Shown here one piece after another: positions 8,878-48,813 of a stretch of DNA of 64,000 bases (position 1 is its first letter; every line of letters starts with the position of its first letter). A program made the translations under genes and the position numbers. The notes below the pieces were generated by a model, which was not told where the DNA came from, made no database searches, and worked only from the letters and a program-made list of their open reading frames with translations. The DNA comes from a virus (Duplodnaviria > Caudoviricetes): positions 64,001 through 128,000 of IMG/VR virus record IMGVR_UViG_2912765049_000001; one strand, given 5' to 3'.

Positions 8878-9558
8878 GTGGCCAGGCGCACGACGGCCTA
8901 CCGACGCGTCGCCCAGGAGCTGCGCGACCAAATCGGCGACGGCACGCTCAAGCCGAACGACCGCATCCCGTCGCTGACGGAACTGCAGGAGACATTCGGG
9001 GTCTCGGACACCGTGATCCTGGAGGCCCGCAAGGTCCTGGTCGCCGAGGGCCTGCTGATCGCCCGCACCGGCGACGGCACGTACGTCCGCGAGCGGCCGG
9101 AGCCGCAGCGCCTGGTGCACCACGCCCCGGACGATCCGGAAGAGCCGCTTTTCCGGCTGGAGGCGGCCGAGTCCGGGCTGTTCCCCGACATCGTCGAGGT
9201 GGAGGCGGAGACCACCGTGCCCGCGCCGGCCGCCGTGGCGCGGTGGCTGGACGTCAAGACGTCGAGGAAGGTCAAGCGCCGGGTGCGCCTGTTCCGGCAT
9301 GACGAGATGCCAGTGCAGCTGCTCACCGTGTACACGCTGGCGAGCGGGAAGACCGACGCGTCCGGCGTGGAGGAACAGGTCACCTCCCGGCCGGCGCTGG
9401 ACACAGAGGCCCGAGCCCTCGAGGGCGTGGTGGGCCAGCCGGTCACGGTGGCGACACGGATCGAGCGCCCGGCGGCGGGCCGGGCGCGCGTGCTGGAGAC
9501 GGTCGTCCTCGCCGAGCGGTACACCCTGGTCTACCGGCCCACGTCCGGCCCGGCATGA
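8878..9558 (+). CDS. GntR-family regulator (HutC/UTRA-like; same family as plasmid KorA/TraR)
   Basis: YRRVAQELRDQI..GTLKPNDRIPSLTELQETFGVS...GDGTYV winged HTH. Confidence 0.88.
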   Translation: MARRTTAYRRVAQELRDQIGDGTLKPNDRIPSLTELQETFGVSDTVILEARKVLVAEGLLIARTGDGTYVRERPEPQRLVHHAPDDPEEPLFRLEAAESGLFPDIVEVEAETTVPAPAAVARWLDVKTSRKVKRRVRLFRHDEMPVQLLTVYTLASGKTDASGVEEQVTSRPALDTEARALEGVVGQPVTVATRIERPAAGRARVLETVVLAERYTLVYRPTSGPA

Positions 9559-9588
9559 CGAAACCCCGGCCACGGGGCCGGGGTTCGT
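9558..9588. terminator. Terminator between the convergent GntR gene and phage late operon
   Basis: AACCCCGGCC-ACGG-GGCCGGGGTT hairpin. Confidence 0.7.
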
Positions 9589-9668
9589 GAAAGCAGACCT
9601 GCCCGAGGGCCGGACTACGCCGTGATCGTAGCTCCGGTGAGGGCCGTCATCCAGCAGGTTCCCGGCGG

Positions 9669-10295
9669 TCAGCCGCGCCCGACCGCGACGAGCGCCTCGG
9701 CCAGGGCGGACTGGACGGCACCGACGTACGCCTGGAAGGCGGCCGTACGGTTGCCGCGGTTCCCACGGGACAGGTCACCGCCGACGAAGAACGCCGCCCG
9801 CTGAGCGGTGCTGATCTCCAATTGCACGCCCGCCTTGCGGGTGTTCTGATTGCAGATGTTCTCCGGGGCGCCGCCGTCGAGCTCCGGGGAAGCGAGCTGC
9901 ACCACGAACCCCGCCTGGGACAGCGCCAGCCCCACGCGGTCGCGCAGCGGGTAGTCCAGGCCGCCGAGGTTCGTCAGCGGCGCGGTCCCGGCGCAGCCGT
10001 GCCAGGACACGGTGTGCGTGGCCGCCCGGGCGAGCGCCAGGGCGTTGGGCTCGTCGAAAGCGGTGCTGGTGATGTGCAGCTCGGCGTTGCCCGACGCCTT
10101 CATGCCGTCGAAGACGTACAGGTCGTGGATCCCGCTGGCCGCGGCCTCAGCGAGTTCGCCCGTTCCCTGCTCGATGCCGCCGCCGTGGATGGCCAGGTGG
10201 AGCAGCGTGGAGACGGGCGACCTGCGCCAGTTGCGCTGGTAGTCGAGCCCCTCGAGGTGCTCGTGGGCCAGGTCCGTGTACGAGGTGTACGGCAT
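9669..10295 (-). CDS. Poly-gamma-glutamate hydrolase (phage PghP-like Zn peptidase)
   Basis: AIHGGGIEQGT, LHITSTAFDEP, VSWHG, NICN, GVQLEIS motifs. Confidence 0.88.
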   Translation of the reverse strand: MPYTSYTDLAHEHLEGLDYQRNWRRSPVSTLLHLAIHGGGIEQGTGELAEAAASGIHDLYVFDGMKASGNAELHITSTAFDEPNALALARAATHTVSWHGCAGTAPLTNLGGLDYPLRDRVGLALSQAGFVVQLASPELDGGAPENICNQNTRKAGVQLEISTAQRAAFFVGGDLSRGNRGNRTAAFQAYVGAVQSALAEALVAVGRG

Positions 10296-10323
10296 GAGTC
10301 GCGGGGCTCCTTCGGGTGGGTGG

Positions 10324-10560
10324 TCAGTGGCCCAGGACGGCCCAGACGAGGGCGCCCAGGGCGATGAGCACGCTGAGGGCGGGCAGCGGCCAGCGGGTGC
10401 GCTCGAGCGCGGCGACCCGCTCTTCGAGTTCCTCGACCGCCTTGTCGGTCTGGTCCGAGCGCTGCACGAGCAGGGCCAGCTGGCCGTCGATGCGCGCGAG
10501 CCCGACTTCGAGGGCGCGCCGGAGTTCGGCCAGCTCCAGGGCGACGTCTCCGTCGGGCAC
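10324..10560 (-). CDS. Small coiled-coil protein with a C-terminal TM helix (lysis cassette accessory protein)
   Basis: Heptad-rich N-terminus and hydrophobic WPLPALSVLIALGALVW; directly downstream of the holin. Confidence 0.7.
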   Translation of the reverse strand: MPDGDVALELAELRRALEVGLARIDGQLALLVQRSDQTDKAVEELEERVAALERTRWPLPALSVLIALGALVWAVLGH

Positions 10561-10574
10561 GGCGTACTCCTAGG

Positions 10575-10829
10575 TCAGAGGCGGGCGGTGGGGTCGGACT
10601 TGGCCGGCAGCCACGAGGCGGTGCCGATCTGGCCGAGGCGGGTGCCGATGGCGCCCTTGACGACGGTCAGCGCGGCGGGGAGCGCCGCGACGGAGGCGGT
10701 CTGCAGCACGGACAGGTCGACGATGTCGGTGACCGCTCCGGCGAGCAGGAGGCCGAGGAACGCCTCGACGTAGGTCAGGACGGTGCGCTCGGCGACGTCG
10801 GCGAGGGCCTTGCGGGCGGACTGGGGCAT
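10575..10829 (-). CDS. Holin (r1t-like)
   Basis: MPQSARKALADVAERTVLTYVEAFLGLL, two TM segments, follows the endolysin; true start lies inside the longer track ORF. Confidence 0.8.
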   Translation of the reverse strand: MPQSARKALADVAERTVLTYVEAFLGLLLAGAVTDIVDLSVLQTASVAALPAALTVVKGAIGTRLGQIGTASWLPAKSDPTARL

Positions 10830-10849
10830 GGGTGAACTCCCTTGGGATG

Positions 10850-12052
10850 TCAGGTGGTTGCGGTGAAGGCGTGCCGGGCGGCCAGCCGCTTGAGCGAGGC
10901 GAGGCCGGGGACGCCGTCGGCGGCGGAGCCGGTGTAGGAGCCGCCGGCCTTGCTGCGCTGCCAGGCGGCGTACGCGGTGACGGTCTTGGAGCCGAAGGAG
11001 CCGTCGGCGAACTCGCGCTTCAGGAGGCCCTCGGCGACCAGGGCGTCCTCGACGATGCGGACCTCGGTCGGGTAGGTGGTGTGTCCCTCGGCGGCCGGGA
11101 CGTCCTTCTTCGCCGCGGCGACCAGGTGGGCCACGCTGACCTTTGGCTTGGCCGGGGTGGGCGCCGGGTCGGCCGGGGCGGTCGCCTTGTACAGGACCTT
11201 GACCGTGCTGATCGCGCCCGGGTCCTGGTGGTCGTTGCCCGGAACGTCGCCGTGCGAGAAGTGGCCGCCCTTGGACTGCCAGACGCTGCGCGAGCGCGCC
11301 TTGCCCGCCCCCGGGTACTTCGCCGGGGGCCCGGCCGGGAAGACGTCCGGCACGCCCCAGGAGCGGGCCGCGGACAGGATCTTCTGCCAGCCCGGCTTCT
11401 TCGCCGGGTCCCAGCCGTTGGTCCACGGGCTCTTGGCGTAGCCGAGGACCTCGATCTGGATGCAGACGCGTCCCTCGCGATTGGTGCGGCGGGTGCCGTC
11501 GTTGCGCAGCGCCCGGCCGCTCTGGTTGAGCGGGCCGAACTGCCCGACCCGGTCGGTCACGGGGCAGTAGATGAGCTGCGGTTCGGAGGCGACCCGGATC
11601 AGGTACGAGCCGACCGACTCGAGGTACTTGCCGCCGGCCGGGGACTCGGTGCTGTGGTGCACGACCCGCGGGGGGTTGCCAGGGGTGTCCATCGCGCCGC
11701 CGATGGACCCGTCGCCGAGCCGGATCGCGCCGGAGATCCACACGGTGCCGGTGGCACCTCGCGGCAGCTCGTCCGCACCGGGCAGGTCGCCGGTGAGCGC
11801 GCCGACGGCCGGTTCGGGGTCCGGGCGCCGGATGATGAACGGCTCGGCACCCACCGGCTCGTACCAGTCCAGGTCACCGTCGTCGCGCAGCACGAACACG
11901 GTGCCCGGGCGACTGGAGTGCTCCCGGGTGAAGCGCGGCACGGTGTCGATCTCGGCGATGGCGCGGGCGGTGTCGACGTGCGCCTGGTCGACCTCGCCGC
12001 AGTAGGTGACGGACTGGTTGGGGTGAACGACGGCAGCGTGGTAGGTGGGCAT
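10850..12052 (-). CDS. Endolysin, N-acetylmuramoyl-L-alanine amidase with a C-terminal peptidoglycan-binding domain
   Basis: VVHHSTES, IQIEVLG, HFSHGDVPGNDHQDPG; C-terminal ADGSFGSKTVTAYAAWQ and ADGVPG. Confidence 0.88.
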   Translation of the reverse strand: MPTYHAAVVHPNQSVTYCGEVDQAHVDTARAIAEIDTVPRFTREHSSRPGTVFVLRDDGDLDWYEPVGAEPFIIRRPDPEPAVGALTGDLPGADELPRGATGTVWISGAIRLGDGSIGGAMDTPGNPPRVVHHSTESPAGGKYLESVGSYLIRVASEPQLIYCPVTDRVGQFGPLNQSGRALRNDGTRRTNREGRVCIQIEVLGYAKSPWTNGWDPAKKPGWQKILSAARSWGVPDVFPAGPPAKYPGAGKARSRSVWQSKGGHFSHGDVPGNDHQDPGAISTVKVLYKATAPADPAPTPAKPKVSVAHLVAAAKKDVPAAEGHTTYPTEVRIVEDALVAEGLLKREFADGSFGSKTVTAYAAWQRSKAGGSYTGSAADGVPGLASLKRLAARHAFTATT

Positions 12053-12061
12053 GGCTCCTCG

Positions 12062-12880
12062 TCAGGCGTGGAGTTGGATCGCGTCGATCTGCTCGCGCAA
12101 CGCGACGTAGGTGGACAGGCGCAGGAAGAAGTCGCCGTCGTGCCCCCAGCTGGGGCTCCAGGAGTTGCGCAGCCGCAGCACGGTGCGCTCCGGGATCACG
12201 CGGCCGTCCGGGTACTGGGCGACGTCCTCGAGGCCGATGGCGCACACCTCGTGGCCGCCGGCGAGCCCGGAGGTGCGCCAGTACGGGACGGCGTCGACGA
12301 AGCCGTCGCGGCCGGGGGTGAACCAGGCGTTGAACCAGGGCAGGCCGAGCAGGACCGGTCCGTCCTGCAGGGCGGCGGCGAGGGCGTCGGCGTCCAGGGC
12401 GTGGGTGTAGGAGCCGATCAGACCGCGGGCCTTGAGGGCACGGGCAGTACCGAGGCCGGAGCTGCCGCTGTCGGCGGGCGGCCACTGGTAGGGCACGAAC
12501 TCGTCGAGCGCGGTCGCCTCGGTGTACAGGCCGATCGCCCACCGTTCGGCCTGCGCCGCGTCGTTGGTGGGCAGCCCGGCGTGTGCGAGGGCGTCGGGGG
12601 CGAGCAGCACGGACAGGGCCACGGCTGCGGCGTTCGCCGTGCACGAGCCGAGCGCGTCGACGTCCGGGGCGCCGGGCACGATGGTGGAGGTGCGGATGCT
12701 CTGGCTGTAGAGGTCCTGCTGGTTCAGCACCGGGATGGCAGGCTGCCAGTGGACGGGCCGCAGGGCCTCGCCGCGGTGGCGCCGGACGTGGGCCAGCGAG
12801 CGGGCGTCGAGGACTTGGTGGCGGCCGAGCGCCGGGTGTGGGGTGTAGTGGCGTACGAGAACGCCGTGTGTGATGGGCAC
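12062..12880 (-). CDS. Papain-like (C1) cysteine peptidase
   Basis: Triad motifs LGSCTANA, GGHEVC and LRNSWSPSWGHDG. Confidence 0.8.
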   Translation of the reverse strand: MPITHGVLVRHYTPHPALGRHQVLDARSLAHVRRHRGEALRPVHWQPAIPVLNQQDLYSQSIRTSTIVPGAPDVDALGSCTANAAAVALSVLLAPDALAHAGLPTNDAAQAERWAIGLYTEATALDEFVPYQWPPADSGSSGLGTARALKARGLIGSYTHALDADALAAALQDGPVLLGLPWFNAWFTPGRDGFVDAVPYWRTSGLAGGHEVCAIGLEDVAQYPDGRVIPERTVLRLRNSWSPSWGHDGDFFLRLSTYVALREQIDAIQLHA

Positions 12881-13099
12881 CGACTGGTCCGCTTCTCCCC
12901 CGCGCCCCAGATGGGCTTGGCCACCGGCCCGCGCACGGCGGATTCGGATGGCTCCCTCGGGGGTGTGGTGCGGACCGCGAAGCGGTGGCGTGTGGGCGGA
13001 GGGTCGCCCGCAGGTGCCGTGATCAATGATAGGTGCGGTCCCGCGCGGGCCCGGCCCGCGTGCCCGTGCCGTCCGGACTGCCCGCGGGCCGGGAGCCGT

Positions 13100-14094
13100 T
13101 CAGGTTCCGTCGATCAGGCGCTCGGCCAGGTACGGCGACCAAGTGCCCGCCGTGATGCCCTGGCCGATTCCGCAGGAGCCGTCCGAGTCGCCGGGGTACT
13201 TCACCCACAGCAGGTAGTCGGCGCCCGCGACGCCGATCGAACTGGGCACGCCCAGGCGTCGTCCGGCGGGGTTGCACCAGTCGACGTGCTGCCCGACCTC
13301 GTTCATGGCGCCGTTGCCGTTGCGGGCGGTGTCCACGACGAAGCCCTTGTTGGGCACCCCGAGGCGGGCGAGTTCGGCGGTGATCTGGGAGGCATAGGTG
13401 CAGCACACGTCGACGGCGTCGAAGTTGGCGACGTTGACCGCGAAGCCGCGGACCTGGGCGACGCCGGCGTCCTTCAGGCGGGCGGCGATCTCCGGCGGGC
13501 GGATCCAGGTGGCGTTGCCGCCGTCGAGGTAGACGGTGGTGGCGGGACGCGCGGCGAGGGCCTGCGCGGCATAGGCGACCAGGGCGGTGCGTTCGGCGCG
13601 GGCCGCGTCCGAGGGGAGGTTGCCGAGCTGGGCCAGGGAGTCGGGCTCGAGGATCACCAGGGCCGGGCGGTCGCCGATGCCAGCCGCGGCGGCGTCGATC
13701 CATGTCCGGTAGGCGTCCGGGGACGGCGAACCGCCGGAGCTCTGCCCGCCGTTGTCGCGGTTGAACATGTTGTACAGGGCGACGATGGGCATCTGTCCGT
13801 GGGCGGCGGCTGCGGCGACGTATGCGTCGAGGTCGGCCTGGATGTCCTTGTTCCAGTCGCCGAACCAGCGGGCGCCCGGGCGGCGGGCGATGGACCGCTC
13901 GAGCTTCTTGGCGCGCGGGTCGTCCGGGTTCAGCGTCAGCCACTTGGCGGCGTTGGAGTCGGGGTCGACGTAGAAGCCCTCCTTCACGGTCGAGCAGGTC
14001 AGCCGGACCTCGGTGAGGTAGACGGTGACGGCGCTGGACTGTCCGAGCTGGAAGGAGAGCTGGCCGGCGGTCGTCATCGTGGAGGTGAAGCTGA
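13100..14094 (-). pseudogene. 3' part of the interrupted CBM4-GH6 cellulase (GH6 catalytic domain)
   Basis: FYVDPDS, ILEPDSL, YLDGGN, VVDTARNG, WCNP, WVKYPGDSDG; rejoins 18439..18772 in frame once the insertion is removed. Confidence 0.88.
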
Positions 14095-14118
14095 GAAGCT
14101 GTTTCAGAACCGGAGATC
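14095..14118 (+). repeat. Left terminal inverted repeat
   Basis: GAAGCTGTTTCAGAACCGGAGATC; imperfect match extends to about 42 bp. Confidence 0.92.
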
Positions 14119-14334
14119 CGTGACGTTCTGTAACGGATGGCAGAGTCGTTCCGCTGTGTGTCGGGTATGGGGGCGTGTTCGCGCATAAGCGGGCAAGCCC
14201 GCACACGAAGCGGGGTATTTTCTGTCGTTTGTGGTGACCTGGGGGCGGGCGGCGGAGCGTGGAAGGTCTACGCGGGCCGGAGCGGTGGTGGCCGGTGAAG
14301 TGCCGGCCTTTTCGGGCCCCTGGGAGCGTGTGCC

Positions 14335-15270
14335 ATGGTCCAGACCGTCGGCAGTGTGCCGTGCGAGCGTTTCGATGATCTGGTGGACCAGTCAGTGAAG
14401 CTGGTCCGAGTGATGACGGGCTGCCAATTCGCACTCGGAGACTTCGCGCTGGAGATCGCGCCGCTGCGTACGCACGGCGGGAACATGGCGCTGGGGGAGG
14501 GCGAGGAGCAGGGGGTGGAGGACTCCTTACGCCTCTTCGCCGAGGAGATAGGACTGTCCTTCCACACGGTGCGGACGTATCGGTGGGTGGCCGCGCGGTG
14601 GCCGAAGAATCAGCGCCAGGAGGGCGTCTCCTTCGAGGTGCACCGGATCTTGGCGTCGGCGCCGGACGCGTACGAGTTGATCCAGCATCCTCCAGTCAAT
14701 GAACGGACGGGCCACTCCGAGTGGAGCGGGGACGCGGCGAAGCGAGCGGCGGGATGGGCGACCGCGACACCGGTGACGGCGGCGGAGAAGGTCGAGGCCA
14801 TCCGGGACCTTGCGCAGGACGAGGCGGTGGCTGCCCAGGCGGCATGTGACCTGCTGCACCGGCCTGAGGTGGCCTTCAAGGCGATGCGGGACCGGCAGGC
14901 CCGTGAGCTGGTCAATCAGGCCCAGTTCGATCAGGCCGAACTCGTCGAGGAAGGAGACGAGGAGGAGGCATGGTGGGACGAGAACGACGCTGGGGAGGAG
15001 GACGGCGTTGTTGATCCCGTCGCGATCGTGCGGGGTTTCCACCGGGCTATGGAGTTCACCGACTTGATCGGTGTCTGTCAGGGCTTCGTCGCCGGGGCGA
15101 GCCGGCTGGTTCCCCGACTGCGGGGACGGGAGTTCTCCGAATCCCAACTCGCGCTGGTCGCACGGCATTTAGAGAAGATCCGGGCGACGGCGGACTGGAT
15201 CGAGACGGCGGTGTCCACCGGGAAGGTGGACCTGGATGAGGCCCTGGCCGAGCTGCTGAGGGACAGGTAG
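14335..15270 (+). CDS. DUF6192 / RacO-like protein
   Basis: QFALGDFALEIAP...FAEEIGLSFHTVRTYRWVAARWP...GVSFEVHRILA pattern; two TTA codons (14527, 15169). Family call from memory. Confidence 0.65.
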   Translation: MVQTVGSVPCERFDDLVDQSVKLVRVMTGCQFALGDFALEIAPLRTHGGNMALGEGEEQGVEDSLRLFAEEIGLSFHTVRTYRWVAARWPKNQRQEGVSFEVHRILASAPDAYELIQHPPVNERTGHSEWSGDAAKRAAGWATATPVTAAEKVEAIRDLAQDEAVAAQAACDLLHRPEVAFKAMRDRQARELVNQAQFDQAELVEEGDEEEAWWDENDAGEEDGVVDPVAIVRGFHRAMEFTDLIGVCQGFVAGASRLVPRLRGREFSESQLALVARHLEKIRATADWIETAVSTGKVDLDEALAELLRDR

Positions 15271-15272
15271 CC

Positions 15273-15689
15273 ATGAAACGGCGGGCGGGACTGCCCGCTC
15301 ATGTTCACGGCGAAGCCGTACGCAAAGCCCTGCAAGAGGCACGTCCTGCCGGGCTGCACCTGAAACAGCTGGTCAAAGCTACCAAGTGCACCCCCGCCCA
15401 GGTCTGGACGGGCATCCGGTTCCTGCGGAAGATCGCGGTCAAGGAAGGACTGCCGCCGGTGACCTTCAACCGCCGGGACGGGTTCCAGCTGTCCGAGGAG
15501 CCCGAGGTGTGGATCGCTTACGAACGCGCGATCTTCGGGGCCGAGCTGCATCGCATCACGAATTTCATCACCGGGATCGTCGCCCCGCACGCCAAGCGCA
15601 CCCCCGAGGACGAGTGGGCCCGCCTGGTCCTGGAACAGCTCGGCGGGGTCAAGGCCACCCTGGAAGTCCTCACCCGCATGGAACGCTGA
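15273..15689 (+). CDS. RacP-like small protein (predicted winged-helix N-terminus)
   Basis: Starts 2 nt after the upstream stop; PAGLHLKQLVKATKCTPAQVWTGIRFLR. Confidence 0.6.
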   Translation: MKRRAGLPAHVHGEAVRKALQEARPAGLHLKQLVKATKCTPAQVWTGIRFLRKIAVKEGLPPVTFNRRDGFQLSEEPEVWIAYERAIFGAELHRITNFITGIVAPHAKRTPEDEWARLVLEQLGGVKATLEVLTRMER

Positions 15690-15690
15690 G

Positions 15691-16653
15691 ATGACCTGCC
15701 CGAACGAGACCCGACCGCCAGCCGTGCGCGAGCGGCGCTACCCCAGCGACACTACGGACGCCGAATGGGCCGTCCTCGAACCGCTGCTGCCCGTCCCGGC
15801 CTGCCGGCTTCCCGCGGGCGGGCGCCCGGAGAAGCATTCGCGCCGCAACGTGGTCGATGCCATACGGTATGTGAACGACAATGGGTGCAAGTGGAGGGCC
15901 GTTCCCGTCGACTTCGGGATCCCCTGGCGCACGGTCTACGGGTTTTTCCAGCGATGGCGGGCGAGCGGAGACCTGGCCCGCATCCACGCCGAACTGCACC
16001 AGAAAGTCCGCGTTCACGACGGCCTCAATCCCCACACCGTCGCGGTGATCCTGGACTCCCAGTCCGTCAAGGGCGCCGAGACGGTGAGCCAGGACACCCG
16101 CGGCTTCGACGGCGGAAAGCTCATCAATGGCAGGAAGCGGCACCTGGCCGTAGACATGCGCGGCATGGCGCTCGCCGTCATGGTCACCCCTGCCGCCCCG
16201 CACGACAGTATCCCCGCCCGCGACCAGCTCTTCCGCCTGCGCCTGACCCATCCCGAACTCGCCGTCGCCTGGGCGGACTCCGCCTACGGCGGAACCCTCA
16301 TCGACTGGTCTCACTCCTTCCTCGGCATCACCCTCAAGACGGTGCCCCGCCGCAAAGACCAGGACGGCTTCGCCGTCCTCGCGAAGAGGTGGCGCGTCGA
16401 GCGGGCCATCTCGTGGATCATGAGAGCCAGGAGAAACGTCCGCGACTACGAGCGGCTCATCTCCCACAGCGAGGCCCACATCACCTGGACCTTCATCACC
16501 CTCATGGTCCGCCGCCTCACCCACCCTCCCCGGCCACCCCGCACGTCACCACACCCCGTCGAACCGGTCGAGACGAGCGCCGACAAGCCCAAGCCCATAC
16601 GCCTGCGGAAGCCGTCGAACACCATCCGCCTCGCCCCAGCTGCTCTGAGCTGA
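15691..16653 (+). CDS. IS5-family transposase (IS1031-like)
   Basis: YPSDTTDAEW, ILDSQSVK, GRKRHLAVD, WADSAY, RWRVERAISW DDE motifs. Confidence 0.93.
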   Translation: MTCPNETRPPAVRERRYPSDTTDAEWAVLEPLLPVPACRLPAGGRPEKHSRRNVVDAIRYVNDNGCKWRAVPVDFGIPWRTVYGFFQRWRASGDLARIHAELHQKVRVHDGLNPHTVAVILDSQSVKGAETVSQDTRGFDGGKLINGRKRHLAVDMRGMALAVMVTPAAPHDSIPARDQLFRLRLTHPELAVAWADSAYGGTLIDWSHSFLGITLKTVPRRKDQDGFAVLAKRWRVERAISWIMRARRNVRDYERLISHSEAHITWTFITLMVRRLTHPPRPPRTSPHPVEPVETSADKPKPIRLRKPSNTIRLAPAALS

Positions 16654-16965
16654 CACATCTTGCGGCCGGTGTCACTCCGAGATCCGGGTGGCTAGCAGAT
16701 CTGTCTTCATCGGTGCCACTCGGGGCAATTCCGTGTGCGCGCAAACCCACTGCCAACGGGTCGCCGTTGCGGAGGACCGGTACCCGAGGGGACAATGCGT
16801 GGAGGTGCCGGGTGGTCATCCCGGCGAAGTGTTGGAGGCGCTGCTTGTGAACACCGCATCGCGGTGCGCCTCGCTGTGCGCGCCAGACGCTGACCACTTC
16901 GCTTCGCCCACCGGCTGACCTGCTTCGTTCGCGGTGGGCGCTTCCTCTTATGGGAGACCACCGTA

Positions 16966-18267
16966 GTGCCCGAAGACTTCTTGACGGGTGATCGCCGTCC
17001 TCTGACAACGGTTCTTGGCGCCAACTTCGTTTCGATCACTGGGAATTGCCTCACGTACATGGGCGTGCCGTGGTTTGTGCTGCAGAGCACGGACAGTGCC
17101 GCCAAGGTGGGGATCGTCGCGTTCTGCACACTGCTGCCCGTAGTGCTTGCTGCGCTCGTCGGTGGTCCGGTCATCGACCGGATCGGGCGACGGCGGGTGA
17201 GTGTCGCCTCGGATCTCGCCTGCGGGGTTGCCGTTGCGGCGATCCCGCTGCTGCAGTTCGCCGGCATCCTGCATTTCTGGATGCTGTGCGTGCTGATGGC
17301 GATGACCGGGCTGTTCCGTTCGCCGGGTGAGACTGCCCGCGGAGTGCTGTTGCCCACGCTCGCCGAACGCGCCGCAATGCCGCTGACCAGGGCCGCCGGG
17401 TTGTACGACGGTGCGGCACGCTGTGCGGCGCTGACTGGATCCGCTCTCGGAGGTGTGCTGATCGCCGTACTCGGTGCCGAGAATGTCCTGTTGGTGGATG
17501 CCGCGACCTTCGCTGTGGCCGCGCCGCTGTTCGCGTTCGGGGTGCGCGGTCTGCCTGAGGCGCAGGCCCGACGGCGGGTCGAGCCCGCGTCGTTGCGTGC
17601 CTACCGTCGTGAACTCGCGGAAGGGTATCGCTTCGTGGCGGCCACGCCGTTGCTGTTGGGCCTGTGCCTGATGACGCTGGTCACCCGGGGGCTCGATCAG
17701 GGATGGAGCGCCGTGCTCCTCCCGGTGCATGCCCGTGAGAAGCTTGATGGTTCCATCGATCTCGGTCTGCTGAACGCGGCGTTTGGTATCTGCGCACTCA
17801 CGGGGGCGCTGGTCTACGGTGCGGTGGGCAGCCGGTTTCGGCGGTGGCCGGTGTTCACGGTTGCGTTTCTCATCGTAGGCCTGCCGCGCTTCGTGGTGGC
17901 CGCCTTCACCGACACCTTCGGGCCACTGGCCGTGATCATGGCGGTTGAGGGCCTCGCTTGCGGTGTGCTCAACCCCATCATGGCCACCGTGACGTATGAG
18001 ACGGTGCCGGAGGCACTGCGCAGCCGGGTGCTGAGTGCGACGACAGCCTCGGTCCAGCTGGTCACTCCGCTGGGCGGACTGGCTGCGGGCTTCCTCGTGG
18101 ACTCGGTCGGCCTGCCCTCCACGCTGCTGACGATCGGGGGTGTGTACCTGCTCGCCACGCTGTGCCCGGTGATCTTCCCGGCCTGGAGACAAATGGACAG
18201 TACCGGCTCTCCCCACGACAGGGCGGAGGGCTCGCTGCCGCAGAGTTCGGGGTCGAAGCGGGTGTAG
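16966..18267 (+). CDS. MFS transporter, DHA3/Tap-like efflux pump (transposon passenger)
   Basis: About 12 hydrophobic segments, motif A GPVIDRIGRRR, VPWFVLQST, VPEALRSRV. Confidence 0.88.
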   Translation: MPEDFLTGDRRPLTTVLGANFVSITGNCLTYMGVPWFVLQSTDSAAKVGIVAFCTLLPVVLAALVGGPVIDRIGRRRVSVASDLACGVAVAAIPLLQFAGILHFWMLCVLMAMTGLFRSPGETARGVLLPTLAERAAMPLTRAAGLYDGAARCAALTGSALGGVLIAVLGAENVLLVDAATFAVAAPLFAFGVRGLPEAQARRRVEPASLRAYRRELAEGYRFVAATPLLLGLCLMTLVTRGLDQGWSAVLLPVHAREKLDGSIDLGLLNAAFGICALTGALVYGAVGSRFRRWPVFTVAFLIVGLPRFVVAAFTDTFGPLAVIMAVEGLACGVLNPIMATVTYETVPEALRSRVLSATTASVQLVTPLGGLAAGFLVDSVGLPSTLLTIGGVYLLATLCPVIFPAWRQMDSTGSPHDRAEGSLPQSSGSKRV

Positions 18268-18414
18268 TCACGCTGATGGCCGTTTCGGCGCTGCTCACAA
18301 ACACTTGACGTCGGTGCTCCCCGTCGCGTGATCAGGCGGGGGGCCTTGTCCTCTTCGGTGAGCCGCAGGCGCCAGACCAGGTCCTATATCAGGCGCCAGT
18401 CACGGAACGTGACA

Positions 18415-18438
18415 GATCTCCGGTTCTGAAACAGCTTC
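18415..18438 (-). repeat. Right terminal inverted repeat
   Basis: GATCTCCGGTTCTGAAACAGCTTC, exact reverse complement of 14095-14118. Confidence 0.92.
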
Positions 18439-18772
18439 TGAACACGAAGTGGGTGTCCGCGGTCGGCAGGCTGAGCTGCTTCTCCAGGACCGGCGTCCAG
18501 GGGTCGACTCCCATGCCGACCTTGGCGGCCATGGCGGTGCCGTCCTGCGAGGCCCGGGCCGTGAACGAGAGGGTGTAGCGGCAGCCCGCCCGCAGGGGGA
18601 TGCCGTCCTGGCCAAACACGGCGTCCCACAGGTTCGCGGCGTCCGTGCTCGCGGTGGCCTCGAGGCCGGCCGTTCCGGCGGTGATGGTGACCATGGCGGC
18701 GTTGCCCGACCACCAGCCGGTCGTGCCGTTGGTGAACGACCCGTTGGTGATGAGGTCTCCGTACGCGGGCAC
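18439..18772 (-). pseudogene. 5' part of the interrupted cellulase (CBM4/9 carbohydrate-binding module)
   Basis: LITNGSF..GTTGWW, NLWDAVFGQ, YTLSFTARAS; AAGGAGG RBS; no signal peptide. Confidence 0.85.
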
Positions 18773-18788
18773 AGGGAAGCCCCTCCTT

Positions 18789-21071
18789 TTACTTGGTGTA
18801 GGTGACGCGCAGTTTCGGCGGGTACGTCTGCCCGTACCCGCGGGCCCTCCCGTAGAAGGTCTTGTCGGTGGTGTTGGGGTCCAGCGCGATGCCCCGCCAC
18901 GTGGTGGAGTCGAACACTGCGGTGATGTCGACCCACTTGCCCTGGTTGCGTTTCCAGGCGATGGTCTGCGCCTCGGTGTCGCAGGAGAACTTCGCCGGCC
19001 GGGAGGCGTGTTTGTGGGCGCGGATGACGGCCTTGCCGCCGTCCGCGTAGTACCAGTGGTCGAAGTACAAATAGATCTCGGCTTTGTTGATCTTCGCGCC
19101 GGACAGGTCGGTGGCCAGGGCCGCGGGGAAGCCGATCAAACTGGCCTGCACGCCGTTGTTGGCGGAGTAGTAGCCCTGCAGGCAGGAGTTGCCGTAGTAG
19201 GCGTTGTAGCCGGAGCGGCTCGCGTACGACCCGGACCAGGAGGCCGCGTAGGTCTTGGTGTACGTCTGCACCGGTTCGGCGCCGGTGCCGCCGCCGGTGT
19301 TGTACACGCCGGTCAGCGGGATCTCCGGGCCGATGTCCTCGACGTAGAAGACGTTGGTGCGGCCGGTGGTGCCCAGGCCGAGTTCGAGGGTCTGCCCACT
19401 GGTGCCGCCGGAGTTCTGGAACGAGAGCAGCAGGCGGTGCAGGCCGGGACCCAGGGTGGTGGCGCTCGTGACGTGTTCCAGGTCGACTCGCTGGAAGCGG
19501 CCGGTGTGCGACGGCGTGAGGATCTCGGTTTCCCGCAGGGTCGAGGTGAGCGTGGGCTTCGCGGTGCCCCCGTCACGCAGGTAGAGGTGGATCTCGCCAT
19601 CGGTGGCGTTGTCGAGGTCGGCGGTGGCCCGGAAGACGATCCGGTACAGGCGGCCTGCCTCGGCGGTGAAGGGCAGCTCCAGATAGCCCATCTCGCTGCC
19701 CGTTGTGGTGACGGTGGTGCCCGGGGCGGCGCGCGCGATGATTCCCTTGGGCCCGGCCCCGAACAGGTCGCTGACGGGCTCCCCGCCCACGGTCAGCTCC
19801 CCGGCGACGTTGACGTCGTTGAAGCCGGCGGATCCGTCGGTGTCGATCGTCGCCACCGGCTCGCCGTTGTTGCGCAGGGTCAGGTACTGGGGTGCCCCGG
19901 TGACCAGGGACACCGCCTCCTCGCCGGTCTCGTCGAACAGGCGCACCCCCTGGGGGCCGATCTCCGCGCGGGCGCCGCCGGTGACCCGACCGAAGATCGT
20001 GTGGACTTCGGAGTTGTCGAACACGACCCAGCCGGCCGTGGCGGCGGAGGACTCCAGGCACAGCACGGCCTGGGTGGTGCCCTGCGGGGCGGCGACCTGG
20101 CCGGTGATGCGCTGCCACATGCCGGGGATGGGGGTGGTCTTCTCCACCACGCCGTAGCCGAGGACCGTGCCGACGGCGTTCTCCCACCGGGCGAGGATCT
20201 TCACGCCGCTCGCGTTGAGGTCGTCGGAGGTGAGGATGTCGACGGCCATGTAGAGCTGGACGCCGGCGAGGATGGGCACCCGGGCCAGCGGCAGGGTGAA
20301 GTAGGTGGGGGTGTCGGCCAGACAGTCTGCGCGGACGCCGATGCCGGTGCGGTTGCCGGGGGCCAGCGACCACGGGGCGCCGGCCGCGGCGATCGCGGCC
20401 GCGGTGGCCGCGCCCTCGAAGCCGGGGTCGGGCATCAGGTTGGTGCCCTGCCCGACGGCGATCTGGTCGGGGGTGACCGAACCGACCGCCAGGTGCGGTG
20501 TGATGATGGCGCCGACCGCGATGTGGCCCTGCTGGATGACGCCGGTGCCGACGTCCGTGGAGGCCGCGCGGCGCGCGGCGGTCTGCACGGCCGCGGAGGG
20601 CAGGCTGGGGGTACCGGAGGTGTTGACCGCGACCAGGCGCACCCAGATCGGGTCGTAGTAGTTGGTGGCGATGGTCACCGACGCGCCGGACGCGGCCTCG
20701 ATCGTGGCCGCCGGCCACATCACGTCCGGCTCGGCGTCCGCCGAGGTCATCAGGTGCACCTGGACGCGGGAGAGGTCCAGCGGGGCGGCATCCGCGTCGG
20801 TGAACGCGCCGTCCCAGGTGATGCGGACGCCGTTGAGGGCGGGTTCGGTCTGCGGGGCGGACGGGACGGGCGGGCGGGGGCCGTTGACCGCGACCACGCC
20901 GGAAGTGCCGTCGCCCTGCTGGCCGATGACGGCCCGCAGCGAGCCGCCGACGTCGTAGACCTCCAGGGCGGTGTCTTCCAGGGAGGCGTGGCTGAGGCGG
21001 CTGGCGCGCTGGAGGCCGGTGATCTGCCGTTCGATGCGGGCGAGGCGGGAGCCGATGTCGAGGCTGCTCAC
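18789..21071 (-). CDS. Minor tail / tail fibre protein
   Basis: Last tail gene; N-terminal SRLARIERQI coil, FN3-like and CBM-like segments (NLMPDPGFE); GTG overlaps the upstream stop. Confidence 0.72.
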   Translation of the reverse strand: MSSLDIGSRLARIERQITGLQRASRLSHASLEDTALEVYDVGGSLRAVIGQQGDGTSGVVAVNGPRPPVPSAPQTEPALNGVRITWDGAFTDADAAPLDLSRVQVHLMTSADAEPDVMWPAATIEAASGASVTIATNYYDPIWVRLVAVNTSGTPSLPSAAVQTAARRAASTDVGTGVIQQGHIAVGAIITPHLAVGSVTPDQIAVGQGTNLMPDPGFEGAATAAAIAAAGAPWSLAPGNRTGIGVRADCLADTPTYFTLPLARVPILAGVQLYMAVDILTSDDLNASGVKILARWENAVGTVLGYGVVEKTTPIPGMWQRITGQVAAPQGTTQAVLCLESSAATAGWVVFDNSEVHTIFGRVTGGARAEIGPQGVRLFDETGEEAVSLVTGAPQYLTLRNNGEPVATIDTDGSAGFNDVNVAGELTVGGEPVSDLFGAGPKGIIARAAPGTTVTTTGSEMGYLELPFTAEAGRLYRIVFRATADLDNATDGEIHLYLRDGGTAKPTLTSTLRETEILTPSHTGRFQRVDLEHVTSATTLGPGLHRLLLSFQNSGGTSGQTLELGLGTTGRTNVFYVEDIGPEIPLTGVYNTGGGTGAEPVQTYTKTYAASWSGSYASRSGYNAYYGNSCLQGYYSANNGVQASLIGFPAALATDLSGAKINKAEIYLYFDHWYYADGGKAVIRAHKHASRPAKFSCDTEAQTIAWKRNQGKWVDITAVFDSTTWRGIALDPNTTDKTFYGRARGYGQTYPPKLRVTYTK

Positions 21072-22168
21072 GCGGCGGCCCCGTAGTGGAAGGAGTCGGC
21101 CCGGGCGAGGCTCACGGTGACGCTCTCGCCGTCGCTGCCGCCCGGGCGGACGCTCCAGCCCATGACCCGCATCCAGCCGGTGAAGGACACCCAGTCGTTG
21201 TGGACCCGGGTGTAGACGTCGTCGCCCACCTGGAAGGAGCCCAGCGGGGCGGCCGGGTGGTCGGGGCGGATGCGGATCTGTTCGATGGTGCCGCGGATCT
21301 GCCGGCGCTTGCGGTCGGCGGCGGCCCGCTTGGCGAGGATGTCGGTGCCCTTGACCTCCGGCAGGGCCAGCACGGTCTCCATGCGCAGCCGTCCGTCGCG
21401 GACGCTGTCGATGTGCCGGCGCTTGTTGCGGCCCTCGCCGGAGCCGGTGGCAATGACGGTGTTGGCGAACTCGTCGGCGGAGCGCGGGACGGGCGGGGCG
21501 TCGAGGACGTTGATGCCGGTGGAGAAGGACACGTCGGTGCGGCGCGTGCCCAGCCGCGGGTAGCCCAGGCGCAGCCTGCGCACGATGGCGCCGTTCGCGC
21601 CCCAGGCGGTGTCGCACGTGTAGTCCGGGGAGTCGTCGGCGGAGACCAGGTCGTCGACGGCGTCACCGAGGACCGGCTCTTCCCACCAGGAGAACTTCAG
21701 CGGCTCGGCGGTCGTGCCGACCTTGGCGGTGGAGGTGGTGGGGTCCACGACGACGCCCAGGTTGCCGTCCGGCAGGGACTGCGCGTACGCCCAGACGTCC
21801 CGGATCACCTTGCAGGGGTCGGCGTTGACGTACGGGCCGCGGCCGTTGAGTTCGCCGTGGACGTCGTGGCGGCGCTGCAGGTACGACGACCAGCCGGCCG
21901 CCTCGAGGGAGAGGGTGCGGTCCTCGGGGGTGGCCTGCCACAGCAGTCCGCCCCAGCGCAGGTGCCCGTCGCGCTCGGCGTACAGCAGGACGTTGCCTTC
22001 GTCGGCGACGTCCGGCAGGGAGCGGGCGAAGCGCGGGGCGAGTTTGCCGGTCAGGGCGCCGGGCCCGTTGAGTTCGGGGCCGAACTCGACGTCGGTGAGG
22101 GGCACGTCCGGGCTGATGATCTCGCCGGTGAGGGCGTGCTGGGCGAGGTAGCGGTAGGCGGACGCCAT
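21068..22168 (-). CDS. Minor tail protein (ReqiPepy6 gp37-like hub)
   Basis: MASAYRYLAQHALTG, LRWGGLLW, LRLGYPRLG; position in the tail module. Confidence 0.75.
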   Translation of the reverse strand: MASAYRYLAQHALTGEIISPDVPLTDVEFGPELNGPGALTGKLAPRFARSLPDVADEGNVLLYAERDGHLRWGGLLWQATPEDRTLSLEAAGWSSYLQRRHDVHGELNGRGPYVNADPCKVIRDVWAYAQSLPDGNLGVVVDPTTSTAKVGTTAEPLKFSWWEEPVLGDAVDDLVSADDSPDYTCDTAWGANGAIVRRLRLGYPRLGTRRTDVSFSTGINVLDAPPVPRSADEFANTVIATGSGEGRNKRRHIDSVRDGRLRMETVLALPEVKGTDILAKRAAADRKRRQIRGTIEQIRIRPDHPAAPLGSFQVGDDVYTRVHNDWVSFTGWMRVMGWSVRPGGSDGESVTVSLARADSFHYGAAA

Positions 22169-34516: not shown

Positions 34517-35587
34517 TCACCACACCCGCGCGGCCATGTGGATGTCCGGCACGTACATCACCGGCATGGCGGAGGCCGCGACCTTGGTCCACACGGTGAC
34601 CGGGTCGTCGGTGTAGCCGTGGGTGACGACGATGCCGGGCGCGTCCTCCCGCAGGATCGCGGGGTTGGTGCCGCGGGACAGCACGAGCGACTCGGCGGTG
34701 ATGCCGTACTGCGTCTCGCCCCACTGGCGCGGGTTGGGCGGCAGCATCAGCCACAGGTTCTCCGGCAGTACCCGCGGGTTGGTGCCGTCGTCCAGGGGGA
34801 TCTGCACGTCGTACACGGTGATCGGCGGCAGCCCGTACCGCGCACGCACGGCGTCGACCTCGTTGGGGGCGAGGACGGCGGTGGGGATCTGCGAGCCGAG
34901 CAGCGACCCGTAGTAGGCCGCCCGGTAGGACTGGTTGCCCGCGAGGAGGCTCTTGGCCTTGAAGGACGTGAAGATCCGGGTGGGCAGCGGTGCCCGGGCG
35001 TCGCGCAGCGCCTGGATCCAGCGCATCTCGTCCGCGAGGGCGTCGGCGGTCGGGTCGGTCCACGGCACCGGAGCGGTGGGCATGTGGGCGGCCGGCACCT
35101 GGGCGTCGTACTCGATGTACAGGTTGTTCTCGCCCTTGAGCGTGAACTTGCCGTCGGCCAGCAGGTCACCGGCGGCCAGCTCCATGCGGGAGCGGATGGA
35201 CAGCACGTGCGCGGCGACGTCGTCGTACACGGCCTGGACCAGCTCGTCGGAGTTGGCGCCGCGGTCGGCGTCGAGGAGGATCTGCTCCATCTCGCCCACG
35301 AGGTACTTCTGGCCGAGTGGCGGGAGCTTGCCCTCGGTCTCGACCATGGTGATCTCGCGGGTCGCGATGGGCGTGGTCGCGTCCCAGGCGCGGTACTTGG
35401 CCGCCGGCACCCGGCGGTTGGTCCGCTTCACCCTCCACTTGACGGTGTTGAGGCGGACTTCCGGCAGCACGCTGCGGGTCAGCTCGTAGTCCTCCGGCCC
35501 GGGGATCGCGCGGACGAACGCGTTGATGTCGGTCGCCGTGAGCTCCCGGAGCAGGAGCTCGAGCATGTCGTGCATCTCGGTCGGCAT
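34517..35587 (-). CDS. Major capsid protein (lambda gpE-like)
   Basis: 356 aa from MPTEMHD; KLPPLGQK, SRMELAAG, DPVTVWTK...MPV; position. Confidence 0.85.
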   Translation of the reverse strand: MPTEMHDMLELLLRELTATDINAFVRAIPGPEDYELTRSVLPEVRLNTVKWRVKRTNRRVPAAKYRAWDATTPIATREITMVETEGKLPPLGQKYLVGEMEQILLDADRGANSDELVQAVYDDVAAHVLSIRSRMELAAGDLLADGKFTLKGENNLYIEYDAQVPAAHMPTAPVPWTDPTADALADEMRWIQALRDARAPLPTRIFTSFKAKSLLAGNQSYRAAYYGSLLGSQIPTAVLAPNEVDAVRARYGLPPITVYDVQIPLDDGTNPRVLPENLWLMLPPNPRQWGETQYGITAESLVLSRGTNPAILREDAPGIVVTHGYTDDPVTVWTKVAASAMPVMYVPDIHMAARVW

Positions 35588-35601
35588 GACGGGGCTCCCT
35601 C

Positions 35602-36012
35602 TCAGGATGCGTAGGTGACGGAGGCGGTGGTCTTCTTCACGGCGGTCGCGTCGAAGGCGACCGGGAGCTTCGCCGGGGCGACGAGGCCGTGGATGCGCAG
35701 CGCGGCGCCGATGCGGGTGGCGCCGACGCCGAAGGCGGTCTCGGTGTCGAGGAAGCCGGCGAGGACCTCGTGGCCGTCGGTCGCGGCCGGGTCGTACGGC
35801 TCGTACAGGCCGCTGGTGGCGTTGCGGGCCAGCGGCAGGCCGGACTTGAAATGCGCCTCGACGGTCTTGATGCCGCGCACCCAGTGGGTGTTCTCCGCGA
35901 ACTTCGCAACGTCGAGGGTGATCGTCTGGTTGGTCTCGGTGCCGTGGCTGGACAGCAGCCAGGGGCGACCGACCCGCAGGCTCTGAGTGGTGGTGATCGG
36001 CTGGATATCCAT
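35602..36012 (-). CDS. Head decoration protein
   Basis: KSGLPLAR..TSGLYEPYD...LAGFL...HGLV...KLP. Confidence 0.8.
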   Translation of the reverse strand: MDIQPITTTQSLRVGRPWLLSSHGTETNQTITLDVAKFAENTHWVRGIKTVEAHFKSGLPLARNATSGLYEPYDPAATDGHEVLAGFLDTETAFGVGATRIGAALRIHGLVAPAKLPVAFDATAVKKTTASVTYAS

Positions 36013-36142
36013 GCCGGGGTCGTCCTCCCGTGGGACGGGCGCAGCAGAAGAGCGGGGCACCGCAGTTGGTGCCGTCGTCCACGGGGAGGAAGGGGGTGGG
36101 CGTGGTCCCAGGGGTGGTGCGGTGGTGCGGAGCGGCGGCCGG

Positions 36143-47414: not shown

Positions 47415-48692
47415 TCAGTCGTCCTGGTCGGGGAGGGTGAAGTCGTGCGGCTCGCCGGTGGACTTGAGCACGGGCTGTTCGCCGGTGTGTTCCTGGTAGC
47501 GGCGGCAGATGACGTCGGCGTACCGGGGGTCGAGCTCGACGACGCGGGCCGAGCGGCCGGTGACGTGCGCGGCGATGAGCGTGGACCCGGAGCCGCCGAA
47601 CGGCTCGTAGACCAGCCCGTCGGGGCGGCACGAGTTGCGCAGGCCGGCGGTGATGAGGTCGACGGGTTTGGAGGTGGGGTGCTCGGCGTTGCGCGCGGGC
47701 TTGGGCACCTCGAACACCGTGGTCTGCGCGTTGTCGCCGTACCAGCGCTCCCCGCCACGGCCCAGCCGCCCGGACCCGGCCGGCGCGTCGGTGAACCCGT
47801 ACAGGATCGGCTCGTGCCGGTAGTGGTAGTCCGACCGGCCCAGGACCATGGTGTCCTTGGCCCAGATCAGGTTCTGCCGCACCAGCCACCCGGCGTCCGT
47901 CATCGCGGTCTCGAAGGTGATGCGGGCGGTGTCGGCGTGCGCGACGTAGACGGGCGCGCCGGGCTTGAGGGCGACGGTGGCCACCGCGAAGGCGCCGGCC
48001 AGCAGTTCGGGCAGGTCGGTGGCCCCGTCGTTCTGGATGGTCAGCGCGTCCTTGGTCTTGCCGACGTAGTCGACGCCGTACGGCGGGTCGGTCCACATCG
48101 CGTCGCAGCGGTCGCCGTCGAGCATCTCCTCGACGGCCGCGACGTCGGTGGAGTCGCCGACCAGGAGGCGGTGGCGGCCGAGGATCCAGACGTCGCCGAC
48201 CTGGGAGTGCGGGTCGGCCGGGGCATCGGGGATGTCGTCGGGGTCGGTGAGCGCGGCGGGCTCTTCCTCGGTACCCAGCAGGGCGGAGACATCTTCGGCG
48301 GTGTAGCCGGTGCCGTCGAGGTCTCCGTCGAGGTAGGAGAGCAGGTCCGCCAGGGCGTCGTTGTCGTACGTGCCGAGCTCGGCGAGCCGGTTGTCGGCGA
48401 GGTTGATGCGGCGGGCCTGGTCGTCGTCGCACTCGATGACCTCGCACCGGGCGGCGGCGTAGCCCTCGGCCTTGAGGGCGTCGTGGGTGTGGTTGCCGGC
48501 CAGGATGACGTACTGGTCCTCGCCCAGGGCGCGCACCACCAGGGAGCGGTACTGGCCGTGGCGGCGCAGCGAGCCGCGGATGGCGTCGATGTCGCCGCGC
48601 CGGGGGTTGCCGGGGAACCGCTCGAGCTGGTCGAAGGGGATCTCGCGGGTGCCGAGGTAGGTCACCGCGGCGGTGGGCGTGGGGGTGCCCAT
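47415..48692 (-). CDS. ParB-like domain fused to an N6A/N4C DNA methyltransferase (beta class)
   Basis: PGNPRRGD, WTDPPY, HPTSKPV, EPFGGSGST. Confidence 0.9.
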   Translation of the reverse strand: MGTPTPTAAVTYLGTREIPFDQLERFPGNPRRGDIDAIRGSLRRHGQYRSLVVRALGEDQYVILAGNHTHDALKAEGYAAARCEVIECDDDQARRINLADNRLAELGTYDNDALADLLSYLDGDLDGTGYTAEDVSALLGTEEEPAALTDPDDIPDAPADPHSQVGDVWILGRHRLLVGDSTDVAAVEEMLDGDRCDAMWTDPPYGVDYVGKTKDALTIQNDGATDLPELLAGAFAVATVALKPGAPVYVAHADTARITFETAMTDAGWLVRQNLIWAKDTMVLGRSDYHYRHEPILYGFTDAPAGSGRLGRGGERWYGDNAQTTVFEVPKPARNAEHPTSKPVDLITAGLRNSCRPDGLVYEPFGGSGSTLIAAHVTGRSARVVELDPRYADVICRRYQEHTGEQPVLKSTGEPHDFTLPDQDD

Positions 48693-48813
48693 GGCAGCTC
48701 CGTCCACCCCCACAGTGCCGTGATCCATTTTCCCCGACCCCGGCGGTGACCTGGGCGGGCGTCAAGTGGCCCGGAGCGGCGGGCGGTTCGGCAAAAGATC
48801 ATGCCCCCTCCCC

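Follow-up and report, generated by a model that had tools for sequence, protein, structure and literature searches.

The window analysed here is a 64,000-nucleotide stretch of viral DNA (Duplodnaviria; Caudoviricetes), positions 64,001 to 128,000 of the IMG/VR record IMGVR_UViG_2912765049_000001. On its minus strand lies a predicted cellulase gene that is split into two parts by a transposon. The split locus consists of the following features.

18780..18788, minus strand: Shine-Dalgarno sequence AAGGAGGGG, read from the sequence, 7 nt before the GTG start at 18772
18439..18772, minus strand: 5′ part of the cellulase gene, codons 1-111 from the GTG start at 18772, encoding most of the family 4 carbohydrate-binding module (CBM4) and including the TGA copy at 18439-18441
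14095..18438, plus strand: IS5-family cargo transposon, 4,344 bp long; its terminal inverted repeats measure 41 nt, and TGA is duplicated at its ends (14092-14094 / 18439-18441)
13100..14091, minus strand: 3′ part of the cellulase gene, encoding the last part of CBM4, then a short linker and the catalytic domain of glycoside hydrolase family 6 (GH6), with the stop codon at 13100-13102

When 18772-18439 is joined to 14091-13100 on the minus strand, a stop-free frame of 1,326 nt encoding 441 aa is obtained. An uninterrupted gene in Streptomyces muensis DSM 103493 (L007:2103-3428) is also 1,326 nt long and is identical in sequence at the junction. In total, the joined window gene and the S. muensis gene differ by 24 nt and 11 aa, the 5′ part (18439..18772) being 95% identical to L007:2103-2435, and the surrounding regions of the two genomes share 97-99% nucleotide identity. 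Given the equal length, the identity across the junction and the few differences overall, we regard the reconstruction as exact. An initial annotation of this DNA had proposed that removing the transposon and one TGA copy would restore an in-frame gene of this length, intact apart from the insertion, and had suggested a search for uninterrupted homologs in related prophages. The S. muensis gene, with the same length and the same junction, is such a homolog and confirms the proposed frame. The joined product likewise retains the catalytic Tyr and four Asp residues, and the strong ribosome-binding site, AAGGAGGGG, immediately follows the TAA stop codon of the upstream tail gene.

The boundaries of the element core, 14095-18438, were set by reading both ends and by comparing the three copies of the transposon in the genome. 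The inverted repeats at 14094-14134 and 18399-18439 are 41 nt long and 90% complementary, and the empty target site is present in S. muensis DSM 103493. The three copies, namely that in the window and those at C1:85960-90305 and C1:9529416-9533761 on the chromosome, are 100% identical, which indicates that the insertion was recent. Thus, it was the recent arrival of an IS5-family cargo transposon that inactivated the cellulase gene in this genome.

The transposon and the neighbouring genes

The transposon combines a transposase that has a DUF4096 N-terminal domain and a DDE_Tnp_1 domain with inverted repeats and a short TNA-type target duplication, as expected for the IS5 family. The two chromosomal copies sit in the terminal inverted-repeat arms of the 9.6-Mb chromosome and are flanked by TCA and TAA, with no perfect duplication. 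Partial relatives of the transposon, 2.5 kb long and 82% identical, are located closer to each chromosome end (C1:6291-8772 and C1:9610949-9613430). The genes carried by the transposon and those next to the cellulase gene are as follows.

14335..15270, plus strand: passenger gene for a DUF6192 protein of 311 aa (Pfam PF19691, E 2e-70)
15273..15689, plus strand: passenger gene for a 138-aa protein with no Pfam match; GC content at third codon positions 0.83
15691..16653, plus strand: IS4/IS5-type DDE transposase of 320 aa (Pfam DUF4096, E 1e-25; DDE_Tnp_1, E 7e-21)
16966..18267, plus strand: passenger gene for an MFS transporter of 433 aa (Pfam MFS_1, E 5e-39)
18789..21617, minus strand: last tail gene, encoding 942 aa (PHROG 38009 tail protein, E 2e-27), 56% identical to gp71 of the Streptomyces phage Gilgamesh
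12062..12880, minus strand: peptidase gene, located in the lysis region beyond the 3′ end of the cellulase gene (PHROG 16701, E 9e-24)
10850..12052, minus strand: endolysin gene (PHROG 17214, E 2.5e-69; no Pfam match)

The window is part of contig C2, a separate replicon of 151,949 bp without terminal repeats, and the transposon is the sole similarity of C2 to the chromosome. The cellulase gene belongs to a minus-strand phage late operon, in which the genes for a portal protein, a major capsid protein, a 1,732-aa tape measure protein, two minor tail proteins and the 942-aa tail protein are followed, after the cellulase gene, by those for the peptidase, the endolysin and a poly-γ-glutamate hydrolase. 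The gene is therefore placed between tail and lysis genes, as the initial annotation had stated. A promoter and terminator scan of 9400-14100 gave nothing useful, and a GC-rich hairpin right after the cellulase stop codon (-44 kcal/mol) was no better than shuffled sequences (z -1.5). The poly-γ-glutamate hydrolase is PghP-like (PF05908, E 1e-57) and is encoded within 9669-12880, a region whose set of envelope hydrolases is unusually rich for a single phage. Just past the corresponding hydrolase gene in S. muensis, about 356 bp (L007 6869-7225) are missing from the window at 9661-9664, a small indel between two elements that are elsewhere 97-99% identical.

The capsid protein of C2 shares 52% identity with its counterpart in the Streptomyces plasmid-phage ZL12, and C2 carries two ParB_N genes (window 34517-36082 and 47415-48728), as would fit a phage-plasmid. 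Many contigs with an ortholog of the cellulase gene are 110-175 kb in size, and Gilgamesh (129 kb) likewise has a ParB-like gene. There are hints that the cellulase carriers may form a family of large Streptomyces phage-plasmids.

The predicted enzyme and its lineage

Pfam assigned the 5′ piece to CBM_4_9 (PF02018, E 5e-11) and the 3′ piece to Glyco_hydro_6 (PF01341, E 1e-56), the latter with 193 bits against a cut-off of 27 and over model positions 5-299 of 305. The catalytic Tyr and the four Asp residues, found in the motifs YNM, RD, EPD, LDGG and PGDSDG, are all present in the joined product, the catalytic acid being the Asp of EPD. Sequence matches of the 3′ part in the PDB were the GH6 endoglucanases 6FAO, Mycobacterium tuberculosis Cel6 and Thermobifida fusca Cel6A, and the active-site Tyr and four Asp were preserved in the alignments to 6FAO and M. 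tuberculosis Cel6. We made an AlphaFold (AF2) model of the intact ortholog P0005, which is 85% identical (predicted local distance difference test score, pLDDT, 86.5). The best Foldseek matches of this model were GH6 endoglucanases, with template modeling (TM) scores of 0.85-0.91, and cellobiohydrolases scored lower (0.56-0.70). As modelled, the GH6 domain is a distorted α/β-barrel of the endoglucanase (open-cleft) type.

The N-terminal 146 residues, modelled separately, had exclusively CBM4 structures as their top folds (Cellulomonas fimi CenC 1GU3, 1GUI, CelK 3P6B and CbhA 3K4Z; TM 0.75-0.78), and the module also gave weak sequence matches to the CBM4 of C. fimi CenC. The residues N10, F13, W20, D50, Q55 and Y66 of the module are invariant and common to the cellular homologs. 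The protein begins 4 residues ahead of the first CBM strand without a hydrophobic leader and consists of CBM4 and GH6 only, with no N-terminal docking domain, trimeric β-helix or extra domain. The gene product is thus predicted, from its sequence and the models, to be a two-domain β-1,4-glucanase composed of CBM4 and an endoglucanase-type GH6.

The lineage to which this protein belongs comprises gp72 of Gilgamesh, proteins of approximately 35 Streptomyces prophages and phage-plasmids, and those of 9-10 IMG/VR contigs. All 48 full-length members of the clade start with M-x-x-(x)-Y-G-D-L, the first CBM strand following after 4-5 residues, and have no hydrophobic segment. A typical signal or lipoprotein leader is present in 55 of 66 cellular relatives, the remainder being mostly truncated gene calls. 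Of the 37 clade members aligned, 36-37 retain the catalytic Tyr and Asp residues. The 'RDC' disulfide Cys pair is absent in all 37 phage copies and present in all 12 cellular relatives compared, while the second pair is retained; the loss of one Cys pair fits folding in the cytoplasm. Ratios of nonsynonymous to synonymous substitution rates (dN/dS) over 431 pairs had a median of 0.24 (range 0.09-0.57), and the lineage is under purifying selection. Full-length copies were found at 28 of the 30 loci analysed, the exceptions being the transposon-split copy in the window and a truncated copy in Streptomyces sp. UG1. Given the missing leader, the conserved catalytic residues, the lost Cys pair, the dN/dS values and the predominance of full-length copies, the lineage most probably encodes a functional enzyme that is synthesized and folds in the cytoplasm and that could reach an extracellular substrate only after the cell has been opened or by travelling with the particle.

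Further details of the clade members were recorded. In the UG1 copy (L029, NZ_JBNGGG010000022.1, approximately 9674-10980), the frame extends over only 256 aa and the GH6 match resumes at 10384; this copy apparently carries a frameshift or deletion. Other changes in the phage clade, in P0005 numbering, are the replacement of the cellular Pro221 by Phe, Tyr or His, variability at Trp297, which is invariant in the cellular enzymes, and a three-residue insertion (H-V-D, 380-382) ahead of the WCNP motif.

The distribution of the lineage was examined in phage, metagenome and genome collections. Among 50,697 phage records, Gilgamesh is the only isolated phage with a true homolog. GH6 occurs in approximately 10 of 2.9 million IMG/VR contigs, all belonging to the phage clade, and the GH6 fold had no match in the BFVD viral protein models, where the CBM alone was matched. 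A possible second phage GH6 in MT836874.1 was rejected, as this record is an unverified faecal contig with genes for AraC, a TonB-dependent receptor and PepSY_TM. The record (L101, 'Bacteriophage sp.', human faecal sample) encodes a leaderless-looking 297-aa GH6 and an α/β-hydrolase, and it resembles a Gram-negative bacterial fragment. In a collection of 5.8 billion proteins, we found approximately 50 Streptomyces cluster representatives of 441-445 aa that are 62-84% identical to the GH6 part; below this group, identity falls to 53% or less, with CBM4-GH6 or GH6-only proteins from myxobacteria and other actinomycetes. Clustering at 50% reduced the entire phage group to one representative. The lineage was present in 7 of 400 sampled Streptomyces species genomes.

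The gene context separates the phage group from its relatives. In Streptomyces species genomes, 25 of the 26 loci with at least 60% identity show the order tape measure, minor tail, minor tail, 942-aa tail homolog, CBM, GH6, whereas none of approximately 55 loci with 55% identity or less has tail genes nearby. Upstream tail genes were also seen at five of the six IMG/VR loci whose flanks were compared, the sixth being a 4-kb fragment. When homologs of the tail gene were found independently by a single-protein search, all four close relatives carried the cellulase gene downstream; records with more distant tail homologs (Arthrobacter phages, ZL12 and RickRoss) gave no GH6 match. At every complete locus examined, the same type of tail gene precedes the cellulase gene, which starts 20-40 nt after it.

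In a maximum-likelihood tree of GH6 domains, the phage clade is monophyletic, with a support of 99 in the Shimodaira-Hasegawa-like approximate likelihood ratio test (SH-aLRT) and a stem of 0.41 substitutions per site. None of the cellular groups is firmly placed as its sister (support of 86 or lower, long branches), and the three GH6 genes of the host chromosome fall far from the clade. By these comparisons, the cellulase gene is a phage gene whose lineage is confined to phages and prophages of Streptomyces. Its nearest homologs reside in phage tail modules and lack leaders, in place of the host catabolic loci encoding leader-bearing enzymes that would have spoken against the initial annotation. 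The description of the product as a CBM4 plus GH6 enzyme without a signal peptide also stands, with the Pfam matches, folds and catalytic residues in agreement and the leader absent in 48 of 48 lineage members. The remark that GH6 is uncommon in phages was likewise justified by the single true homolog among isolated phages, the missing BFVD fold match and the few IMG/VR contigs.

Possible function

CslA-GlxA is responsible for cellulose synthesis at hyphal tips of Streptomyces (PMC11022532). The host chromosome carries a cslA-glxA pair with a convergent GH6 gene, cslZ (C1:5911664-5916687, L093); cslZ itself occupies C1:5911664-5912824, adjoining glxA and cslA. Two further host GH6 genes are located at C1:5037690-5038766 and C1:2284230-2285981. 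A recent capture of a host GH6 gene, cslZ or another, was rejected as the origin of the phage gene, all three being distant from it in the tree. CslZ is a Streptomyces GH6 enzyme reported to cut cellulose, α-chitin and peptidoglycan of Streptomyces coelicolor (PMC9040799), so the range of possible substrates is wider than cellulose.

We propose, with a probability of roughly 0.45, that the phage enzyme is an entry-side depolymerase, tail-bound or co-released, that attacks the apical cellulose of the host. The enzyme would be made in the cytoplasm late in infection, along with the tail proteins, and would leave alongside the virions, bound to their tails or as free protein in the lysate. Its CBM4 module would bind, and its GH6 domain would cut, the CslA-GlxA cellulose on growing hyphal tips, and the virions could then reach the wall of the next hypha. 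Host apical cellulose is the obvious candidate substrate, since the nearest relatives of the enzyme are cellulose endoglucanases with a cellulose- or β-glucan-binding CBM and CslA-GlxA provides cellulose at the tips. The cellulase gene directly follows the last tail gene and is thereby encoded in the tail module, as is characteristic of depolymerases. Phage tail and receptor-binding proteins often contain CenC-like CBMs, as seen in the BFVD fold search. Because the tail gene is the sole constant neighbour of the cellulase gene, we lean slightly towards association with the tail over free release.

Several observations weigh against this proposal. The protein has neither the docking domain nor the trimeric β-helix typical of tail depolymerases and simply has the mature cellular architecture minus the leader. 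An endolysin gene lies 0.45-4.8 kb downstream in 26 of the 30 loci searched for lysins, and a lysis-side role would fit this position equally well. GH6 enzymes can be promiscuous, as exemplified by the activity of CslZ on chitin and peptidoglycan (PMC9040799). The rarity of the lineage (7 of 400 species genomes) implies that it is not generally needed for infecting Streptomyces, and the literature that we searched contains no paper linking cslA or glxA to phage infection.

A role on the exit side, as an accessory lysis enzyme following the logic of the mycobacteriophage enzyme LysB, is rather unlikely, though the likeliest of the alternatives. A leaderless glucanase might escape through holin lesions together with the endolysin and cut the glucan outside the wall, thereby completing lysis and freeing progeny from the hyphal matrix. 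The missing signal peptide and the architecture without a docking domain are compatible with such a role, as are the same-strand endolysin genes downstream in most loci and the position of the cellulase gene in the window, where it heads a run of hydrolase genes (peptidase, endolysin and poly-γ-glutamate hydrolase). However, the conserved linkage is to the tail gene and not to a lysin: the downstream lysins belong to at least three PHROG types, and the intervening genes vary. At 4 of the 30 loci, the queries used detected no lysin within 10 kb, and the tail gene was still adjacent; in Gilgamesh, lysin A is 12.6 kb from the cellulase gene, beyond reverse-strand genes. We also infer that apical cellulose, which occurs only at tips, is no obvious barrier to the lysis of a whole compartment. 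A constant set of holin genes between the cellulase and endolysin genes was considered and rejected; the intervening genes differ among loci and do not help in assigning the cellulase gene to a module.

It is improbable that peptidoglycan or another β-1,4 glycan is the target, with the enzyme serving, through CslZ-like promiscuity, as a second lysin or as a wall hydrolase carried on the virion. The reported activity of CslZ on S. coelicolor peptidoglycan (PMC9040799) and the location of the gene in a tail module beside lysis genes would agree with such a target, but in the tree the phage clade and CslZ lie far apart, CslZ has no CBM (PMC9040799), and the closest solved relatives of the phage enzyme are cellulose endoglucanases. 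Its CBM is, in addition, nearest to cellulose- or β-glucan-binding CBM4 modules, and its conserved residues are common to cellular cellulases. Quite improbable, too, is an auxiliary metabolic gene whose product, released on lysis, degrades plant cellulose in soil to the benefit of related host cells, with no part in infection. The nearest cellular relatives are indeed secreted CBM4-GH6 cellulases of soil actinomycetes and myxobacteria; however, the gene has a fixed, translationally tight position at the end of the tail module, not in a variable cargo region, and a leaderless enzyme would give a living lysogen no access to the substrate. That the gene is an inert passenger, a captured host cellulase gene without a role for the phage, is very unlikely. 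It is disrupted in the window and truncated in UG1, but the insertion is recent, as judged from the 100% identity of the transposon copies, and the monophyletic clade with its long stem, the 28 of 30 full-length copies, the invariant catalytic residues and the dN/dS of about 0.24 are at odds with an inert gene.

The initial annotation had suggested that the phage uses a virion-bound or lysis-released cellulase to strip the host glycan. The gene is phage-borne and apparently intact apart from the insertion, its product is a leaderless GH6 of a kind rare in phages, and the host has cslA, glxA and cslZ; this much of the suggestion was upheld, while the activity, the substrate and the route out of the cell are ones that we infer.

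As for the wider meaning of an entry-side depolymerase, we tentatively consider, at somewhat less than even odds, that the apical cellulose of Streptomyces is a phage barrier or first receptor, and that a dedicated lineage of cytoplasm-folding GH6 enzymes, co-inherited with one type of tail fibre, may have evolved to breach it. The enzyme lineage would thus join two questions, namely the role of CslA-GlxA tip cellulose beyond attachment and pellet formation and the access of Streptomyces phages to their receptors. If true, no earlier case of cellulase-assisted infection would be known from a Gram-positive filamentous host, nor any earlier use of GH6 by a phage, and such infection would extend beyond Erwinia phage S6 (GH5). 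Gilgamesh infects Streptomyces lividans 1326, and cslA, glxA and cslZ mutants have been made in the same species, so that material for a test already exists. Being leaderless and one disulfide pair short of its secreted relatives, such a GH6 enzyme might also suit cytoplasmic expression and could become a tool to disperse mycelial pellets in fermentations.

Comparison with known systems

The closest counterpart in an isolated phage is gp72 of Gilgamesh (QFG13264.1, MN234216.1), an ortholog with the same leaderless CBM4-GH6 architecture (444 versus 441 aa, 61-67% identity). Its gene directly follows that of gp71, the homolog (56%) of the 942-aa tail protein. It differs from the window gene in being intact, in residing in an isolated 129-kb S. 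lividans phage, and in its distance from the lysin gene (12.6 kb from lysin A versus approximately 1 kb in the window). In GenBank, gp72 is labelled only as a 'glycoside hydrolase', and no paper in the literature searched describes this gene family, Gilgamesh gp72, a phage GH6 or a Streptomyces phage cellulase.

The solved enzymes mgCel6A (6FAO, compost metagenome), M. tuberculosis Cel6 (1UP0/1UOZ) and T. fusca Cel6A/E2 (1TML, 2BOD) have the same fold (TM 0.88-0.91, 33-41% identity) and the same catalytic Tyr/Asp set, and they are of the open-cleft endoglucanase type, not cellobiohydrolases. They are secreted, with leaders and two disulfides, whereas the phage lineage is leaderless and has lost the first Cys pair. 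The secreted CBM4-GH6 enzymes, such as the endoglucanase of Myxococcus xanthus DK 1622 (P0104) and a Nonomuraea protein (P0085), share the domain order (44-53% identity) and the invariant CBM residues with the phage enzymes, but they have signal or lipoprotein leaders, keep both Cys pairs and have no phage genes nearby.

Mycobacteriophage LysB, too, lacks the leader of an enzyme family that is normally secreted, and it attacks an envelope layer outside the peptidoglycan. It is an esterase, not a glycosidase, and is encoded inside the lysis cassette, so that its likeness to the phage cellulase would be one of logic only. CslZ resembles the phage enzyme as a GH6 enzyme acting on the same host envelope, but it is a lipoprotein without a CBM (PMC9040799) and a distant paralog on the other major branch of the tree.

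For the proposed use of a phage-encoded β-1,4-glucanase against the cellulose of the host itself, the nearest parallel is Erwinia amylovora phage S6, for which bacterial cellulose is the first receptor and which encodes the cellulases gp095 (GH5) and gp094 (GH48) (PMC9544554). The S6 proteins are not homologous to the phage GH6 enzymes and belong to other GH families, the host is Gram-negative with Bcs cellulose, and gp095 carries N-terminal choice-of-anchor D domains.

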